A DNA stretch of 64,000 nucleotides from Escherichia phage ECO07P2. This document shows, one piece after another, positions 33,012-49,710 of the stretch. A program made the position numbers and the translations under genes. Each line of letters opens with the position of its first letter. The stretch's first letter is position 1. The DNA lies in sequence record OP172785. One strand, 5' to 3'. Under the pieces are notes generated by a model, which was not told where the DNA came from, made no database searches, and worked only from the letters and a program-made list of their open reading frames with translations.

Positions 33012-34439
33012 CTAAAATTTTAATTCATTTGCCAAAGCATCTAACTGAGCTCGAGCGGATTCGTTTCTTTGATAGCGATTCTGTTCAGCCTGAATCTGCT
33101 GTGAACCTGCTACTTCGTTCACTTCAGTTGGAGTAGAATCTTGTTCAATTTCTACCCATTTCTGATTTCCTTTTTGAACACCCATCAAAAACTTATTCCA
33201 TTTATTCTTATCACCGTATCGTGATTTGATTTGCTTAATGAGTTGTTGTTCAGCAGCTGCTAACTCCTCAGTTTCAATGACCGCAAGCATAAAATCGGCT
33301 GTTGCTGGAAGACCGGCAGATTCTGCAATATCGCTCATGTTAACATCAGAAGAATCCCAAGCTTGCTTACCAACCTGTGCTGCAGTCCAAAGAACAGTTT
33401 CGGTTTCAACAGCCAGAGCACGCAATTCTTCTGCGATGGCTTTAACAGTTGTGTAACTATTTTCTGAGTAAACTCTGATGCGGCAAGATTTACAAATACC
33501 TAGATAGTCGACAATAATGATTGTTGGAACAAAATTCTTCTTGAGCTTTAATTCATTTAAAAGCGACCGAAATGTATTAGCGTCTGCTCCACCAGTAGGA
33601 TACTGTTTAACGATTAAACGACCGAGAGTAGATTTCTCACGCCATTTTTCCATTTTTCCTTTATACTCAGCGTAAGAAATATGCCCATCATCAATGTCAT
33701 CAAGAGAAACATCAAGCATATTAGCGTCAATACGCTTAGCACAGACTTCTTCTGCCATTTCCATGGAAATGTAAAGAACATTATGTCCGAGCTGCAAATA
33801 ATCTGCTGCCAATGAACATAGACCTAATGACTTACCAACGTTAACACCAGCCATTAAAACGTTCAGTGTTCCAGTCTCAGCTCCGCCTTTAGTAATTTTA
33901 TTTAGAATTTTGAGTTTAAATGGAACCTTACGAGCTTTATTCATATAAGATAGCCAACGTGCTTCGTAGTCATCCATCCAATCATGGCCAACGTAGCTAT
34001 CAAATGAAATTGATAATGCTTGGCGCATGATGTCAGGAATAGCACCTACATCTGGCATTTTCTTATTTCGTTTTTCTGGAGGAAGCTCAGCATTAGTTTG
34101 AATTTCAATTATTTTAGATGTGGCGTTAAACATCGCCCTTTGCTGAACGTATTTTTCTGTTTCTTTTACTAACCAGCTATGGTCTTCTGGAGAATCGGTT
34201 AGTTTCGAAATAAGTGTTTTTACACCAGAATATTCTGTTTCAGTAAATGAACTATTTTCTAATGCAACATTTAACGCATTAATAGATGGAACGCTATGGT
34301 ACTCATTGACATGAGATTTAATTAATTTGAATGTATTTTTAGCTGGACCACTTTCAAAATATTCTGAATCCATATATGGCCAAACTTTTGAAAAATAAGC
34401 TTGATCAAATATGAGATGAGAAAGAATAATTTCTACCAC
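33012..34439 (-). CDS. 41: replicative DNA helicase gp41 (DnaB family)
   Basis: 475-aa ORF MVEIILSHLIFDQAYFSKVWPYMDSEYFESGPAKNTF; Walker A GVNVGKS. Confidence 0.95.
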   Translation of the reverse strand: MVEIILSHLIFDQAYFSKVWPYMDSEYFESGPAKNTFKLIKSHVNEYHSVPSINALNVALENSSFTETEYSGVKTLISKLTDSPEDHSWLVKETEKYVQQRAMFNATSKIIEIQTNAELPPEKRNKKMPDVGAIPDIMRQALSISFDSYVGHDWMDDYEARWLSYMNKARKVPFKLKILNKITKGGAETGTLNVLMAGVNVGKSLGLCSLAADYLQLGHNVLYISMEMAEEVCAKRIDANMLDVSLDDIDDGHISYAEYKGKMEKWREKSTLGRLIVKQYPTGGADANTFRSLLNELKLKKNFVPTIIIVDYLGICKSCRIRVYSENSYTTVKAIAEELRALAVETETVLWTAAQVGKQAWDSSDVNMSDIAESAGLPATADFMLAVIETEELAAAEQQLIKQIKSRYGDKNKWNKFLMGVQKGNQKWVEIEQDSTPTEVNEVAGSQQIQAEQNRYQRNESARAQLDALANELKF

Positions 34440-34448
34440 ACTTACTCC

Positions 34449-34811
34449 TTAAAAGAATTTAAATTTTTTCTTTGACCTTTTATTAAATGCATCTTGTAGT
34501 TGCATTGTAATACATTTTTCTACATGAGGAGCTAACTCAGCTTTTCTTTCTTGGTCAAGAATAGCAAAGTCCATTACGACTTTTCCATCAACCCAATCTA
34601 ATTTTGTCACATACACAATGTGTGTAGAACCGTCTTCTAGTTTAATGACAATCTCCTGGATAACATTTTCCATAGCAGATTTAATTATCTTAAGAGATTC
34701 ATTAAAAAGACGTTCTTTTCTTTCTTCTTCCCCCTCCGAAGAGGGGGATTCATCGATAATTTCTAGATCTAAATCTAAATCATCTTTATTCATTAAATTC
34801 TTCCATATCAC
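34449..34811 (-). CDS. 40: gp40 head vertex assembly protein (probable)
   Basis: Track ORF of 120 aa between uvsX and 41 as in T4; start may be internal. Confidence 0.55.
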   Translation of the reverse strand: MIWKNLMNKDDLDLDLEIIDESPSSEGEEERKERLFNESLKIIKSAMENVIQEIVIKLEDGSTHIVYVTKLDWVDGKVVMDFAILDQERKAELAPHVEKCITMQLQDAFNKRSKKKFKFF

Positions 34812-35967
34812 TTAACTGGTCTAGGTCAGTTTCTAAATCAGCTGCTGATTTACTTTTACTTTCTGGAGATTTAAATTTTTCAACCTTTGAGTTAATCAAT
34901 TCGTCAACTTCAGCTTCAACAATTTCATTACTATCAATAGCACCTAACTGATAAGCGCGTTTAATAGCATCTCGGAATGGTTGATGCTTAAATAAAGGAC
35001 CCCAGAATGTAGTACAGTTGGTATCTTTTGCACGCCAAGATTTTTCTTCGCGAATCATCTCGCCAGTTTCTTCATCAAGAAATTCACGAGCATACCAACC
35101 GTTTTTAGGTTTTACTACAAATCCTAATTCAAGAGCCATATCTAACAATCCAGAATAAGGATCGATGCCACCGTCAAATTTAACATCAATGAAGAATTTA
35201 CTTTTTTCTTTAACGGTACGAGATTTTTCTACATTTAGAACAAATTGATACCCCTGAAGATCAGAACCATCTTTAATCTGGCGCTTACCGATAATGAATA
35301 CAGTATCAGCCGAATACATTACGCCTGTACCACCTGTCATCACGGTTTTACTAAACATCTCAATTGTTTCAATTGTATGGTTAACCGCAACACATGGAAT
35401 GTTTTTAATACTAAAATAAGGAGTAACAATACGGAATAATGACTTCAGCGATTTAGCACGAGTCATATCTGCCACAGATTTTTCATTCAAGGCATCTTCC
35501 GTTTCTTTCTTAGAAGCCATATTACCGATTGAGTCGATGAATACAATAACTTTTTCACCGCGCTCAATAGCTTCAAGCTGATTCACCATATCAATTTTCA
35601 GTTGTTCAACTGACTGGATTGGTGTATGAATTACTCGTTCCGGGTCAACTCCCATAGATCGCAAATAAGCTGGAGTGATACCAAATTCGCTATCATAGAA
35701 TAAACAAACCGCATCAGGATATTTGTTCAAATACGCCGCAACCATAGTCAAAGACATATTTGATTTAAAGTGTTTAGAAGGACCTGCAAAAATAGTTAAA
35801 CCAGACTGCATACCACCGTCAATCGCACCTGAAATAGCGATATTAAGCATTGGGATTTTTGTACGGATTACATCCTTTTCATTAAAGAATTTAGATGTAG
35901 TCAGTTCAGCAGTCATTTTAGAAGTGGAAGCTTTAATCAAACGGGATTTTAAATCTGCAATAGACAT
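34786..35967 (-). CDS. uvsX: UvsX recombinase (RecA-like)
   Basis: 393-aa ORF; Walker A GPSKHFKS; C-terminal SAADLETDLDQLSDMEEFNE as in T4 UvsX. Confidence 0.95.
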   Translation of the reverse strand: MSIADLKSRLIKASTSKMTAELTTSKFFNEKDVIRTKIPMLNIAISGAIDGGMQSGLTIFAGPSKHFKSNMSLTMVAAYLNKYPDAVCLFYDSEFGITPAYLRSMGVDPERVIHTPIQSVEQLKIDMVNQLEAIERGEKVIVFIDSIGNMASKKETEDALNEKSVADMTRAKSLKSLFRIVTPYFSIKNIPCVAVNHTIETIEMFSKTVMTGGTGVMYSADTVFIIGKRQIKDGSDLQGYQFVLNVEKSRTVKEKSKFFIDVKFDGGIDPYSGLLDMALELGFVVKPKNGWYAREFLDEETGEMIREEKSWRAKDTNCTTFWGPLFKHQPFRDAIKRAYQLGAIDSNEIVEAEVDELINSKVEKFKSPESKSKSAADLETDLDQLSDMEEFNE

Positions 35968-36044
35968 TCATTTTTTCCATAGGCATCATTATATTTTCCT
36001 CACTGGTTAAAGATAGAGTAATTATAACACAATAAATTTAGGCA

Positions 36045-36893
36045 TTAATCAACTGCTATTGGATGAATAGCATTAAACTTATGAAATGCTTCTGACTTTT
36101 CTTTGCGCGAAACACACATGCGAAGAACCTTTAATGGCTCGTCTTCTTCACCCAACGATTTTCGTTTTTCAATATTAGAAGTTTTCCAACGAGCTTGCTC
36201 TGGAAACTCTCTATTGATTTGCTCAAGCGCTCTATTATGTTTAGAATTACTACGAATTGAACTGCACCCGCCAGGAGCTTGTGCTTTTCCAGATACAACC
36301 AGATATTTGAACAAGGCCAAATGCGGATAACCTTGATTAATTAAATTGAGAAATGCATACATATCTTCGCACAAATCAATTTTTCCATACCCAATTTGTT
36401 CTGTCGTAAGTTTTCCAAGGTCATACCATGTATTCGTGAATCCATATGAATTTTCACGATAATTACCCCAAGATGAAGTAATTTTAAAAATTGGTAGGCG
36501 AGCATGGCCGTGATAATACCCGCAATCCATGGCATCTTCCACGTATTGAATCAATTCATAGAACTGTTCACGAGTTAATTGATTAATTTTATCTACACAG
36601 CGACGATCATCTTTCTTTCGCATTGAACTCATACGAATAGTAGTATCATCATCAATCATCCAGATTCGTTGACCTGCATACATATCAGTAATTGCTTTAC
36701 GAGTACCAGCAATTCCATTAACATCATCAGGAATAGTTATAATTTTAGCTCTAGACCCGTAAGCGTCATAATAAGCTTTTTCTTCGTGTTCACGTACTAC
36801 AATATGAGGTTCATAATCAGTCGGAAACATATCAAGGGCAGAAACTGCCCCTACGCGTTGATAGCTTGGAATTACGAATTGAATCATTTCCAC
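36045..36893 (-). CDS. putative glycosyltransferase with DxD motif at the beta-gt locus
   Basis: 282-aa ORF with IWMIDDDTTIR; does not resemble T4 beta-gt N-terminus as I recall; sits between uvsX and gene 42. Confidence 0.6.
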   Translation of the reverse strand: MEMIQFVIPSYQRVGAVSALDMFPTDYEPHIVVREHEEKAYYDAYGSRAKIITIPDDVNGIAGTRKAITDMYAGQRIWMIDDDTTIRMSSMRKKDDRRCVDKINQLTREQFYELIQYVEDAMDCGYYHGHARLPIFKITSSWGNYRENSYGFTNTWYDLGKLTTEQIGYGKIDLCEDMYAFLNLINQGYPHLALFKYLVVSGKAQAPGGCSSIRSNSKHNRALEQINREFPEQARWKTSNIEKRKSLGEEDEPLKVLRMCVSRKEKSEAFHKFNAIHPIAVD

Positions 36894-37624
36894 TCACCGT
36901 TATAATCTTTTTTCGCAATATGAGTTTCGCCAGTTTTCCACCAATGGTCAACCAAATAAAAATGACGGGAATACACATGAAGGCTCCCGACATTCCATAT
37001 AATGGAACCTGCTTTATACTGACGAGTTGAATCACCTGCATTCAAATCAGATACTAATTTATCTAGTACGTATTTTTGCCATGCATAATCATTACGGAAT
37101 CCGAAGACCACGTCATTTGAACGCATGTTAACCACTGCATTGACTTTCTTATCACGAATCAGGTACTGCACTGTATTCGTACACATGAAATCTGACATGC
37201 CATCTTTATTGTAGTCAAACTGCATGGATGGACGAGTATAAATCATGATACCGCGGCGAGAATCAGGATTTTGACCAAGTTCAGCTAAACACATATCATA
37301 CTGGGCATAGTTATCTTCTGACCAGATGGCCCAACCATAATTCGAGTTAATTTCGCCTTTAGAAGATGCTACCTGCTGCCAAATCTTCGGCGTTTCACCT
37401 GGAATATCTTTAACAAACAGACTTTGAGACTTATACCATTCAAGTTCACGCTGAATGTATTCATCATTAAGAGCGCCAAAAATAAAAGGTTCATCTGCTA
37501 CAAATGATGCACCAATAATTTCAATAGTTTTAGCCCCGGTTTTATCAATTACGAAATCTTTTTCCTTTAATGCAAGACCCAAATCAAGACGGATTTCTTC
37601 AACTGTCATATAATCGTTAATCAT
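36884..37624 (-). CDS. 42: dCMP hydroxymethylase gp42
   Basis: 246-aa ORF MINDYMTVEEIRLDLGLALKEKDFVIDKTG; thymidylate-synthase-like fold motifs. Confidence 0.93.
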   Translation of the reverse strand: MINDYMTVEEIRLDLGLALKEKDFVIDKTGAKTIEIIGASFVADEPFIFGALNDEYIQRELEWYKSQSLFVKDIPGETPKIWQQVASSKGEINSNYGWAIWSEDNYAQYDMCLAELGQNPDSRRGIMIYTRPSMQFDYNKDGMSDFMCTNTVQYLIRDKKVNAVVNMRSNDVVFGFRNDYAWQKYVLDKLVSDLNAGDSTRQYKAGSIIWNVGSLHVYSRHFYLVDHWWKTGETHIAKKDYNGEWK

Positions 37625-37631
37625 TTAAACC

Positions 37632-37781
37632 TCAATTGATGCATTCATATTTAACTTGTAACAGTAATAAACTCCACCCTATAATAAGCGTTGGAATCAT
37701 ACAAGGAACTGCTACGCTATAGTATATACTTATTATAATCATCAAGATTAAAAGCAATACTGCTAAAATTTTGCTTTTCAT
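37632..37781 (-). CDS. small membrane protein (~49 aa)
   Basis: Below track threshold; ATG overlaps imm stop; MKSKILAVLLLILMIIISIYYSVAVPCMIPTLIIGWSLLLLQVKYECIN. Confidence 0.45.
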   Translation of the reverse strand: MKSKILAVLLLILMIIISIYYSVAVPCMIPTLIIGWSLLLLQVKYECIN

Positions 37782-38029
37782 TCCTTCTCTCTGATGATAA
37801 TTACTTGATTTTGCTGTACAGATTTTTTAGTTTCACCTGCAATTGACCAAATAAATGTAATAAACCAACCAATGATTGACCAGTTAAACAGTAAAGATGT
37901 GAAAAAGATTCCTACTGTCGATTTTGACCCACGCATCAAGGCGATGAACCATGGAAGCATGTATATAATAATAGCCAACACGCCTGAAACTAAAACCATA
38001 AAAATTGAACCTGCTACTAAAGTTTCCAT
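37778..38029 (-). CDS. imm: Imm superinfection immunity membrane protein
   Basis: 83-aa two-TM ORF METLVAGSIFMVLVSGVLAIIIYMLPWFIALMRGSKS; size matches T4 Imm. Confidence 0.8.
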   Translation of the reverse strand: METLVAGSIFMVLVSGVLAIIIYMLPWFIALMRGSKSTVGIFFTSLLFNWSIIGWFITFIWSIAGETKKSVQQNQVIIIREKE

Positions 38030-38036
38030 GTTTTCC

Positions 38037-38417
38037 TCACTTAGTCAAATTTTTTACACATGAATTATAAGAATTCACTACATACTCCATCGGAGCATTT
38101 TTACCAGTACGCCATTGGTAATTATTAGCCCAATTAGCCCAAAGCTCAGCGCAGTAGTTTTCAATTTTTTCTTCGCGTGTAATCACATCTGAATTACGAT
38201 ATGCTTGTGCAGATTCATCTGGACGAATAGCTTCGTCAAAATTCGCCTGCATTTGTTCTACTGTCTGTTTTGGAGCTTCTTTATAACACTTAACATTAGG
38301 ATTATAAAATTTGCTTGAACAGTTTACAATTTTTCCTACATCAGACTGATTTACTACCGGTCCTTGAGCTACACAACCAGTAAGACCCAATGCAATAACC
38401 AAAATAGCGATTTTCAT
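38037..38417 (-). CDS. putative lipoprotein (126 aa)
   Basis: MKIAILVIALGLTGC signal peptide with lipobox; Cys-containing mature domain. Confidence 0.6.
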   Translation of the reverse strand: MKIAILVIALGLTGCVAQGPVVNQSDVGKIVNCSSKFYNPNVKCYKEAPKQTVEQMQANFDEAIRPDESAQAYRNSDVITREEKIENYCAELWANWANNYQWRTGKNAPMEYVVNSYNSCVKNLTK

Positions 38418-38429
38418 AATAATTTCCTC

Positions 38430-38681
38430 TTAAAACTTAACAAATAACTTTAAAGCATCTTCAGTTTTAATTCCTTTTCTTACACCCATAACAGAAATTG
38501 GCTGTGACTGAAATTTTCCTTTACCATTATAAATTTCCAATCCTGTCACCATTCCATTTTGTTCTATAATACCGTAAGTATTACCTTCATTTTCAAATTC
38601 TTTAACTTTAAAGAGTTTATTAGCTTTTTCTGCATTAACAACTTTTAAATTTTGAATAAAATTAGTTTGAATATTTTTCAT
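38430..38681 (-). CDS. hypothetical protein (~83 aa)
   Basis: Track ORF trimmed to MKNIQTNFIQNLK start after conserved promoter/leader cassette. Confidence 0.55.
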   Translation of the reverse strand: MKNIQTNFIQNLKVVNAEKANKLFKVKEFENEGNTYGIIEQNGMVTGLEIYNGKGKFQSQPISVMGVRKGIKTEDALKLFVKF

Positions 38682-38709
38682 TTTGTGTTCCTCCGTAGTT
38701 GATAGTTGT

Positions 38710-38739
38710 ATAGTACCATGGAAGAACAGGGATGTAAAC
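38710..38739 (-). promoter_or_regulatory. early promoter GTTTAC-18-TACTAT (cassette variant)
   Basis: Minus strand GTTTACATCCCTGTTCTTCCATGGTACTATAC + leader ACAACTATCAACTACGGAGGAACAC. Confidence 0.55.
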
Positions 38740-38827
38740 AGTTTTGTGAAAAAATTTTTAATGAATTCCAGAGGTCCAGAATCATCTATTTTTCCTAAGT
38801 ATAGATTTATATTACTTGTATGAAAAA

Positions 38828-38844
38828 GGGACCCGGAGGTCCCC
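38828..38844 (-). terminator. terminator hairpin after gene 43
   Basis: gggacccggaggtcccc stem-loop immediately 3' of gene 43 stop. Confidence 0.5.
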
Positions 38845-38856
38845 AGATTTATTCTA

Positions 38857-41553
38857 TCAGCCAAACAGGAAGTCTAACGAAGCTTTTTCCTCATAGTCCA
38901 TACCTGCCGATTCACACATACCCGCAAGCGGTTTAACAAACGATTTTTGGAACAAAGTTGAGTAGTCAATCCAAGCCAGTACATCAGAACGAATTTCTTT
39001 TGGAAGTTCCGTACCCGATGGCCAAGCAATGCACTTGTCACCAAATGGATTTCCCTCACGTAACGGAAGAACCATTACCTTATTTCCATCCAAAATTGGA
39101 GCTACACCTAAACCACTAACAGCTCGACGATAAGTTAGCACACCGCGAATGTGGAACGGGCATTTAAATCCTGGCCAACCTTTATCATCATATTTCGCTA
39201 TATCATTCGCAGTTTTTACTTCAGCAATAACTTTATAGTCAAGTTGACGATATTCTTTCTCAAAGTTCTTGTAGTATTCTTGGACAGACTCTTCGCCTTC
39301 CTGAAGAATGCGACGAATACTTTCTTCGAGAGCTTCTTGTACTGCTTTTGGTGTTGAACTCTGCTGAGTTTCCATACCCATGATTTTTAGATGTGGTTCA
39401 GCAAATCGCTTATCTTCCATATCATAAACGTTCAGAGCATAACGTTTTTTCGCTTTCCAAAATCCACCAACACCCTTTGAACCAAGTGGAGGGCAAGAAA
39501 TAGCTTCACGGTCCATATGCATCAGATGCTCGCGGTTATTCATATAATCACATAACTCACGATATGCAACATCAATCATAGGTTCCATCTTTTTCTTACC
39601 GAACTGATTCATGAATTCAACTAAATCGTTCTGCTCTTTGAATCGGTCAAGACCTACTTTTTCAATTACTTTATCTACACAAACATATACAGAATCAGTG
39701 TCACCCGCTGCGATGAAATCTTCACCATCAGTTCCACACACTTTATTTAGATATTCATTAATTTTACGAGCAATCCACTGAATACCAACTTGTCCAAAAA
39801 TCGTGATAGCAGTAGCATTTCGCAAATCATAGTAGCGGAAATGAATATTACCAAGAGCACCATAAAGACTGTTGATAAGAATTTTACGGTTCAGCTGATT
39901 TGTGTTAGCAAGTGTAGCTGCTTTTTCACATTCTTCGATCAGACTATTAAGAACAGATTCAGTGTAATTCGATAATTCATTTAAGAAATCATCGCTGAAC
40001 TTAACATATCGTTCAACTTCTGGTTTAGTTGAGCAAGACCCTGCACCTTTCATAATAATCTTTTTAATAGCTTCGGCATTCATTTCTTCGGCGAACATTT
40101 TCTTTTTCCAATCTTTACGCTGGAAAAATACTTTAGCGATTTCCTTTGGAATGATACCTTCTTGATGCTTATCATACATCCATCCATTCGGAGAACAAGA
40201 ATATTCATCACTTGGCTTAGGAGCTGTTCCTGCGATATATTCATGAATTGGATGAACTTTAAACTGTCCACGAATAGTCTCAGGACTAATGTTAACCTGA
40301 CGAATAATGCTAGGATACAGAGACGTCAAGTCAAAACTCATAATGTATCGACGAGCAATAGGTTTAGGTTCAAACACAAATGCACCTGGAAAACTTTGTT
40401 TAACGTGCGAACCTTGCTGAGGAATAACCTTATGTTCACTTTTCAACGAGTTAAAAATAATAGCATCCCAAGTTTTAATAGGACTCATTACACCAGAAAA
40501 AGGCATTTTAGCATAATAAGACATACTTAAAACTAGATCGATAAACCCACGAATTTTATCAATTGCTTGAACTGATTCTACGTCAATGATGTTATAACTA
40601 ATGTATCGTTGATGATTAGTCTCACGAAGTTTATTAATAGGACCATCGTACGGTAATTTACCCTTTTTGGTTTCATGCTGAGCAACTGATTCCAAAGAGA
40701 ATGATGGCAAATTAGTAAATGCGAACTTCTTGTACAAATCTAAATAATCAAGAATAGATACGCCATCAATAGAATAAATTTCTTTGCTACCGTACATATT
40801 TTGAATTAGTTTAGATTTTACTCGACCGATTGGAGAGAAGCGTTTCATACTGCGTTCGCCCAGAACCATTTTAACACGATTCATGATATACGGAACGTCA
40901 AATCCCTCAATATTCCAACCGGTAAAAATAGCAGGTCGTTTCTGTTCCCAGAGATTAATATATTCCATGAGCATATCACGCTCATTATCAAATGGCATAT
41001 AAATTACTCGGTCAAGAATTTCTTGAGGAACTTCATCACCACCTTCACAGTCAAGCTTAGCAGCTAACTTTGCATCCCATTTTGATACTGAACCGTACAT
41101 TGAATTCAACAAATCAAAGACGTAAAAACGGTCGTCAATTGAATCATAATGAGTGATAGCATCAATTTCATATTCTGCTTTCATTGGGTCAGGAAATTTA
41201 TCGCCAGTAACCTCAATGTCACAGTTAGCTACACGAACAAATTTTCGGTCATAAACAATTTCTGAACCATATGTATCACTGATATAAGCGAGTTTAAAAT
41301 CGTTCATACCGAGAGCTTCGAGACCGATGTCTTCCATTCGTTTCATCCAATCTCGGGCATCTTTCATTGATGGAAATTTTTGAGGAGCACAGTTTTTACC
41401 ATAAATGTCTTTGTATTTTGACTCTTCCTTACAATGCCTAAACATAGTCGGAAGATATTCTACTTCGCGAGTACGTTCCTTTCCGTTTTCATCAATATAA
41501 CGTTCAACAATGCTATTTCCGACTGTTTCAATAGAGATATAAAATTCTTTCAT
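38857..41553 (-). CDS. 43: DNA polymerase gp43 (family B)
   Basis: 898-aa ORF MKEFYISIETVGNSIVERYIDENGKERTREVEYLPTMF; exo motifs FDIE and polymerase motif YGDTDS. Confidence 0.97.
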   Translation of the reverse strand: MKEFYISIETVGNSIVERYIDENGKERTREVEYLPTMFRHCKEESKYKDIYGKNCAPQKFPSMKDARDWMKRMEDIGLEALGMNDFKLAYISDTYGSEIVYDRKFVRVANCDIEVTGDKFPDPMKAEYEIDAITHYDSIDDRFYVFDLLNSMYGSVSKWDAKLAAKLDCEGGDEVPQEILDRVIYMPFDNERDMLMEYINLWEQKRPAIFTGWNIEGFDVPYIMNRVKMVLGERSMKRFSPIGRVKSKLIQNMYGSKEIYSIDGVSILDYLDLYKKFAFTNLPSFSLESVAQHETKKGKLPYDGPINKLRETNHQRYISYNIIDVESVQAIDKIRGFIDLVLSMSYYAKMPFSGVMSPIKTWDAIIFNSLKSEHKVIPQQGSHVKQSFPGAFVFEPKPIARRYIMSFDLTSLYPSIIRQVNISPETIRGQFKVHPIHEYIAGTAPKPSDEYSCSPNGWMYDKHQEGIIPKEIAKVFFQRKDWKKKMFAEEMNAEAIKKIIMKGAGSCSTKPEVERYVKFSDDFLNELSNYTESVLNSLIEECEKAATLANTNQLNRKILINSLYGALGNIHFRYYDLRNATAITIFGQVGIQWIARKINEYLNKVCGTDGEDFIAAGDTDSVYVCVDKVIEKVGLDRFKEQNDLVEFMNQFGKKKMEPMIDVAYRELCDYMNNREHLMHMDREAISCPPLGSKGVGGFWKAKKRYALNVYDMEDKRFAEPHLKIMGMETQQSSTPKAVQEALEESIRRILQEGEESVQEYYKNFEKEYRQLDYKVIAEVKTANDIAKYDDKGWPGFKCPFHIRGVLTYRRAVSGLGVAPILDGNKVMVLPLREGNPFGDKCIAWPSGTELPKEIRSDVLAWIDYSTLFQKSFVKPLAGMCESAGMDYEEKASLDFLFG

Positions 41554-48491: not shown

Positions 48492-48509
48492 AAAGGGCCG
48501 AAGCCCTTT
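48492..48509 (-). terminator. GC tetraloop hairpin after a-gt
   Basis: aaagggccgaagcccttt overlapping a-gt stop codon, flanked by T runs. Confidence 0.45.
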
Positions 48510-49710
48510 ATTTTGTAATAATGTCAAACTGTTCTTTAAAGCAGAAGCTTGAATCTTGATGCTGATACAAAAATTCATAAGCTTTTTCGCGTTCACGGTC
48601 ATAAAGAGCTCGGTCAGATGACAGTTCTTTAATACGCTCAAATGTTGATTCCATGTCATTTTCATCAAACCAAACGATACCGCTATCATGAGAAATTAAC
48701 GGAGTATTATCAACACGGAATTTTAAATTTTCACCAGTAGATTTCCAAAATACTGGAATTGTTCCGCATGCACCAAGCTCGAGATGAGTGTATTCTAAAG
48801 AACGTTGTAGATATTTTTTATCTAATTTACTCAGCTGATAACCAAATCCGGATTTACTCATACGTTCAAGCATTTCGCTATTTACATAACGGTCGAGAAT
48901 TTGCGTTGGCAAATTAGGAGCAATTTTAATTTGGTCTACCTGATGAAGACGATAATACTCGTATGGAATTCCTTTTTCTTTAATAGGAATGAATGCTGGA
49001 GAACGTTCCAGACCTTCCATAATAGTACTTAGTCCTGCAGGTTTAAGATGTTTTTCATGAAAATCAAACATCTGATAAAAGCCTTTCCATGTAGTAGTAC
49101 GACCAATCCAACGGTTGATATTCATGTTAATTTCAGAAACATCTTTCCAGTAGGTTGATCGAACCTTCGCAATATCCATAGGAGGCTGAAAGTTGTATAC
49201 GGTCGGTGCTTCTTCAATATCATCAAACAGAGAAACTGTTTCTGGATACCATTCTTTCATCAGAACTTTATTAAAGTCACCATTATCAGAATGGCTAAAA
49301 ATAACATCAGCTCGACGAACAGTTTCTTCTAATCCCAAATTTCGGCGTAAAGAAAGAGAAGAATGGTCATGCTGGTAAACTACAACACGAACCGAAGGTT
49401 TAATGTTATCAATAATTTTTTTATAGTTATTAATGGTGTCTTCTTCTACTGAAGTAGCAGGAACTGAATTGATAATTAGAATATCACAATCATTTACCAG
49501 CTTAAGGGTTTTATCGTATTCTTTTGCCAATAAAACCGGAATTGAAAATGATTTATAATCATGCGCGCAATTACGAGTAAATGATTTATCTTTAGCATAA
49601 ACCAAAGTTACTTCATGACCATTTTTAATAAACCAATCACGTTGCTCAAGAGAAAATTTAGTTACGCCACAACCTTCAAGACCTCGAGCCATAAAAATGC
49701 ATACTTTCAT
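48508..49710 (-). CDS. a-gt: alpha-glucosyltransferase (hmC DNA alpha-glucosylation)
   Basis: 400-aa ORF MKVCIFMARGLEGCGVTKFSLEQRDWFIKNGHEVTLVYAKDKSF as T4 alpha-gt. Confidence 0.93.
   Translation of the reverse strand: MKVCIFMARGLEGCGVTKFSLEQRDWFIKNGHEVTLVYAKDKSFTRNCAHDYKSFSIPVLLAKEYDKTLKLVNDCDILIINSVPATSVEEDTINNYKKIIDNIKPSVRVVVYQHDHSSLSLRRNLGLEETVRRADVIFSHSDNGDFNKVLMKEWYPETVSLFDDIEEAPTVYNFQPPMDIAKVRSTYWKDVSEINMNINRWIGRTTTWKGFYQMFDFHEKHLKPAGLSTIMEGLERSPAFIPIKEKGIPYEYYRLHQVDQIKIAPNLPTQILDRYVNSEMLERMSKSGFGYQLSKLDKKYLQRSLEYTHLELGACGTIPVFWKSTGENLKFRVDNTPLISHDSGIVWFDENDMESTFERIKELSSDRALYDREREKAYEFLYQHQDSSFCFKEQFDIITK

Follow-up and report, generated by a model that had tools for sequence, protein, structure and literature searches.

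Gene context and start codon

The window analysed here is a stretch of 64,000 nucleotides from Escherichia phage ECO07P2 (OP172785). Its six-frame list of open reading frames (ORFs) includes one on the minus strand at 36045..36893, of 282 amino acids when counted from a GTG codon, which contains the sequence IWMIDDDTTIR. The features at and around this ORF, with those needed further below, are as follows.

33012-34439, minus strand: gp41 helicase (ORF list)
34449-34811, minus strand: gp40 (ORF list)
34786..35967, minus strand: uvsX recombinase, the downstream neighbour of ba-gt (ORF list; annotations of matching records)
36045..36887, minus strand: predicted coding sequence of ba-gt, also g-gt or TAGT (beta-glucosyl-HMC-alpha-glucosyltransferase), 280 aa plus stop (ORF, T2/T6 identity, PHROG 842, PF20691)
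36633..36665, minus strand: IWMIDDDTTIR motif, residues 75-85 in the 280-aa numbering
36645-36653, minus strand: DDD, residues 79-81, presumed DxD site for metal and nucleotide-sugar binding
36884..36887, minus strand: ATGA overlap of the ba-gt start codon (36887-36885) and the gene 42 stop codon (36886-36884), sequence …GAGTGGAAATGATT…
36884..37624, minus strand: gene 42, dCMP hydroxymethylase, upstream of ba-gt (96% identical to T4 gp42; Pfam thymidylate synthase family)
beyond gene 42, minus strand: imm, imm.1 and gene 43 (ORF list)
48508..49710, minus strand: alpha-gt, DNA alpha-glucosyltransferase, 400 aa (Pfam PF11440, E 2.4e-236; 91% identical to T4 alpha-gt)

The first-pass annotation had described a 282-aa gene carrying this motif between uvsX and gene 42. 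The ORF, the motif and the place all stand, but the length is likely to be 280 aa. The third codon of the ORF, two codons downstream of the GTG at 36893, is an ATG at 36887, and it is from this same ATG that the T2 record annotates ba-gt as a 280-aa protein with the same 4-nt overlap with gene 42. The T6 record AP018814 likewise annotates ba-gt from that ATG with a 4-nt overlap. Because of the ATGA overlap and these annotations, translation most likely starts at the ATG, and the GTG is probably unused. The overlap also suggests that translation of ba-gt is coupled to that of gene 42. A promoter and terminator scan of 35800-38200 gave site counts equal to the shuffled expectation.

When the ORF map is compared with the annotations of T6, T2 and T4, the ba-gt locus between gene 42 and uvsX is seen to be syntenic both with T2 and T6 and with the beta-gt locus of T4. 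The 77-nt spacer between ba-gt and uvsX (35968-36044) holds no gene and no segA. This GIY-YIG homing endonuclease gene lies at this spot in T4, beside beta-gt, but is absent from T2, T6 and the window. The distant alpha-gt named in the first-pass annotation is real, with its PF11440 match and its identity to the T4 protein, and proteins 100% identical to it are found in phages wV7 and vB_EcoM_P8.

Two small ORFs were seen nearby. One, at 37632-37781 on the minus strand, encodes 49 very hydrophobic residues (MKSKILAVLLLILMIIISIYY…) and takes up the 153 nt that separate imm from gene 42, where its start ATG and the imm stop codon overlap as ATGA. T4, T2 and T6 have it in the corresponding position with 86-88% conservation, but it is unannotated in the records of these phages that were compared, and it may be an overlooked small membrane protein. 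The other is an extra small gene at 38430-38864 on the minus strand, between imm.1 and gene 43, probably of 83 aa (MKNIQTNF…). Its T2 equivalent is hypothetical protein T2_046 (95% identity), and T4 and T6 match only its upstream non-coding part.

Family membership

The window protein is identical to the T2 enzyme (LC348380) at 276 of 280 positions, the differences being R11H, K92R, I101V and P251S. Compared with T6 (MH550421), identity is ~98% over the aligned residues, with five differences, not counting a stop codon present in MH550421. K92 and I101 of the window protein occur in neither the T2 nor the T6 enzyme. Its residues Y40, D55 and R106 are those of T2, and its R11 and P251 are those of T6. 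Judged by these residue states, the window allele is a mosaic of T2 and T6 with two substitutions of its own.

Profile searches point to the same family. PHROG 842, 'beta-glucosyl-HMC-alpha-glucosyltransferase', matches with an E-value of 5.6e-89 over positions 4-269 of 270. The Pfam entry for the TET-associated glycosyltransferase, TAGT (PF20691), matches over model positions 2-205 of 205 with 38.8 bits, compared with a gathering cut-off of 27.5 bits, although the corresponding E-value of 1.2e-9 is modest taken alone. No NCBIfam model matches either of the two glucosyltransferases of the window, ba-gt or alpha-gt.

We consider it close to certain that the gene encodes a beta-glucosyl-HMC-alpha-glucosyltransferase of the T2/T6 type, a DxD-type enzyme of GT-A fold (see below) making gentiobiosyl-hmC after alpha-gt. 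The first-pass annotation had raised such an enzyme in place of beta-gt, and the full-length near-identity to the T2 and T6 proteins, together with the fold, bears it out. Everything else compared is alike, namely the length of 280 aa, the gene 42/uvsX locus, the ATGA overlap, the invariant DDD and the partners alpha-gt and gp42. The window protein differs from its T2 and T6 counterparts only in a few substitutions, of which K92 and I101 are unique and the rest mosaic.

Fold and the DDD motif

An alignment of 48 family members was built by two rounds of homologue searching, and the structure was predicted. The only invariant columns of the alignment are D79, D80 and D81 along with R11 and R63. 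The predicted structure has a mean pLDDT of 93.0 and a pTM of 0.90, with no disordered segments. In it, the DDD directly follows the β-strand 74-78, right after which the DxD motif usually lies in GT-A enzymes. We presume that the DDD is the GT-A DxD site, binding metal and nucleotide-sugar.

A fold search with the predicted model returned the GT-A fold, with the conserved acidic DxD-type motif present. No GT-B enzymes were among the top matches, nor does the model have the two-domain GT-B fold, and the choice between GT-A and GT-B that had been left to structure prediction thus falls to GT-A. Searching the solved structures by sequence produced chance matches only (E-values of at least 0.76), so that no relative with an experimental structure was found. 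Cellular GT-A enzymes of the GT2 kind, such as TarP (6h1j), WrtF (9omh) and GnT-I (1fo9), share the Rossmann-like GT-A fold, in which the fourth strand is followed by an acidic motif of DxD type, but their sequence identity to the window protein is only 8-16% and their acceptors are glycans or lipids, not glucosylated DNA. The aligned length is about 185-210 residues, and a C-terminal extension of ~70 residues in the window protein (~210-280) lies outside the core shared with the cellular enzymes. Our GT-A result reproduces the fold published for the T6 TAGT, whose AlphaFold3 model is GT-A and clusters beside GT2 enzymes, alpha-gt and beta-gt being GT-B (PMC13216743).

Expected DNA modification

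In the pathway that we propose, gp42 would make hm-dCMP, with hmC then replacing C in the phage DNA. Alpha-gt would use host UDP-glucose to attach an alpha-linked glucose to hmC, and ba-gt would extend this sugar by another glucose through a beta-1,6 linkage, to give gentiobiosyl-hmC. The ba-gt reaction, with UDP-glucose as donor and a beta-1,6 linkage as outcome, is one that we infer from the literature on near-identical enzymes. Since gp42 and alpha-gt are present, the acceptor, alpha-glucosyl-hmC, can be made, and since all three genes are intact in the window a T2/T6-type pathway is expected. The phage DNA should then contain hmC together with its alpha-glucosyl and gentiobiosyl forms, whereas beta-glucosyl-hmC should be absent.

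Related phages have been characterized chemically. In Tequatrovirus phages described as 'like T6', alpha-gt is accompanied by a TAGT, and HPLC/MS of their DNA detected hmdC, alpha-glucosyl-hmdC and gentiobiosyl-hmdC, with beta-glucosyl-hmdC in neither of two groups (PMC13390438). One group had the three nucleosides at ~1:2:2, the other about one-third hmdC and two-thirds gentiobiosyl-hmdC (PMC13390438). When g-gt is deleted from T6, the DNA is described as ~75% alpha-glucosyl-hmC, and treatment with BapA releases glucose from this DNA but not from wild-type T6 DNA (bioRxiv 10.64898/2026.02.25.707755).

The degree of gentiobiosylation is a separate matter. Gentiobiosyl-hmC makes up ~72% of hmC in T6 but ~5% in T2 (PMC6024577; PMC13216743; bioRxiv 10.64898/2026.02.25.707755), values of 72% and ~5% being given in PMC13390438 also, so that the two phages differ 14-fold despite nearly identical enzymes. 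Because the residue differences of the window protein form a T2/T6 mosaic, a T2-like or T6-like level is not predictable from them. There is a modest chance that the gene, though intact, is only weakly active in vivo, leaving a T2-like few percent of gentiobiosyl-hmC in DNA whose glucosylation would, in functional terms, be almost purely of the alpha kind. The low value of T2, whose enzyme differs at four residues from the window protein, lends this some weight (PMC6024577, PMC13390438), as do Y40, D55 and R106, held in common with T2, although R11 and P251 are held in common with T6. It is countered by the ten out of ten measured Durham Tequatroviruses with this gene set, all of which had about 40% or about 67% gentiobiosyl-hmC (PMC13390438), and by the presence in the window protein of every residue invariant in the family. 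Such low activity would, in any case, concern the degree of modification and not the identity of the enzyme.

We think it improbable that the window allele, with its K92 and I101 and an alpha-gt only 91% identical to that of T4, sets a level of gentiobiosylation unlike those of both T2 and T6. Were this so, comparison of near-identical natural alleles could trace the long-known difference between T2 and T6 to particular residues or to a particular partner. Nothing in the sequence hints at new chemistry.

The assignment of the gene to the T2/T6 type indicates which DNA decoration is to be expected. The decoration affects how sensitive a phage is to sugar-reading defences, among them Brig1-type glycosylases, the type IV enzymes GmrSD and BrxU, the BapA/Brig3 system and CRISPR effectors. 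The assignment is of use in annotation and in the prediction of host range. The enzyme, the synteny of its locus, the GT-A fold and the gentiobiosyl-hmC of such phages are already published (PMC13390438, PMC13216743, PMC6024577). The feature is known, very common and part of textbook T-even biology, and the finding is correct but ordinary.

Comparison with T4 beta-gt

The gene 42/uvsX locus is precisely where beta-gt lies in T4 and its relatives, and the two enzymes share a genomic slot downstream of gene 42. Both the T4 enzyme and the T2/T6-type enzyme use UDP-glucose, act on phage hmC DNA and form a beta linkage. They differ in sequence, family and size, T4 beta-gt being a PF09198 protein of 351 aa, compared with 280 aa here, without sequence similarity to the window protein. 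They differ too in acceptor, which for T4 beta-gt is naked hmC and for ba-gt alpha-glucosyl-hmC. The dissimilarity to T4 beta-gt that the first reading of the gene had reported was confirmed by BLASTP, in which the best E-value between the two proteins was 3.4. PF09198 matches T4 beta-gt but not the window protein, and a tblastn search with T4 beta-gt of the whole 64-kb window (of a genome of ~167 kb) found no homologue, the best E-value being 1.4. The structure of T4 beta-gt, PDB 1JG7, is GT-B (as cited in PMC13216743).

It could be argued that the gene is nevertheless a divergent beta-glucosyltransferase, recruited from another fold but acting like T4 beta-gt on naked hmC to form a beta linkage. 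It does sit at the T4 beta-gt locus, and its label in some public records is 'putative beta-glucosyltransferase' or simply 'glucosyl transferase'. We regard this as highly improbable in view of the absent sequence similarity, the GT-A rather than GT-B fold, the near-identity to the T2/T6 enzyme, which makes gentiobiosyl-hmC (PMC6024577), and the absence by HPLC/MS of beta-glucosyl-hmC from Tequatroviruses with this gene set (PMC13390438).

The earlier expectation of a beta-gt at this position is T4-centred, the T2/T6-type gene being ~16 times commoner there among sequenced relatives. At identities of at least 90%, the T2/T6-type gene is found in 472 phage records and a T4-type beta-gt in 29. 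Among the T4-like coliphages sequenced, T4 is the exception and the T2/T6-type gene the usual occupant.

Distribution and public records

A tblastn search of 50,697 phage records found the window protein in 689, and in 685 the match spans at least 80% of the protein. Identity is at least 99% in 177 of the matching records and 95-99% in 294, and several phages, among them ZCEC15, phiC600P9 and pSs-1, have a protein that is 100% identical. The 3-kb region from uvsX to imm shows 97-98% DNA identity to many Tequatrovirus genomes, most of which label the gene beta-glucosyl-HMC-alpha-glucosyltransferase, and phages such as Ozark and GEP001 match the surrounding 25 kb at 96-97.5% identity. That the ORF is a chance one or an unexpressed pseudogene has a negligible likelihood. 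A terminator-like hairpin inside the coding sequence (36833-36853) carries no weight, the number of such sites being equal to the shuffled expectation, and against a chance ORF or pseudogene stand the full-length conservation in 685 phage records, the confident predicted fold and the ATGA overlap with gene 42 that is kept in T2 and T6.

More distant TAGT homologues, of 47-66% identity over the full length, occur in Salmonella phage S16 (NC_020416), Citrobacter phage Moon (NC_027331), Enterobacter phage myPSH1140 (NC_055739) and Serratia phage PS2 (NC_024121). In these T4-like phages a beta-gt homologue, 49-53% identical to that of T4, directly adjoins the TAGT. With beta-gt in place of alpha-gt as the partner of TAGT, the acceptor may be beta-glucosyl-hmC instead of alpha-glucosyl-hmC, and the two sugars on hmC would then be expected to be linked differently.

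The two public T6 records each have a different lesion in ba-gt, while the window gene (36045-36887) is intact. In MH550421 (L002:3138-3980) codon 10 is TAG, so that the annotated gene begins at Met20 and has 261 aa. In AP018814 (L004:3135-3974) one GAT of the GATGATGAT repeat is lost, turning the invariant DDD into DD (IWMIDDTTIR). As T6 serves as the reference for 72% gentiobiosyl-hmC, the lesions may be mutations of laboratory stocks or sequencing errors, and in either case they matter to those who take these records as a standard.

Labels in other records vary. The T4-type beta-gt of RB55 (KM607002) is mislabelled 'beta-glucosyl-HMC-alpha-glucosyl-transferase', the TAGT is called 'alpha-glucosyl-transferase' in Ge15 (PP359696) and 'putative beta-glucosyltransferase' in Sf22 (MF158045), and gp42 is 'thymidylate synthase' in many records. 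Finally, a 99.6% identical protein lies beside gene 42 in PV654520, the 142-kb record of Pseudomonas phage vB_PSGBLB0006, with the host given as Pseudomonas aeruginosa; the match points to contamination by a Tequatrovirus or to an error in the host label.
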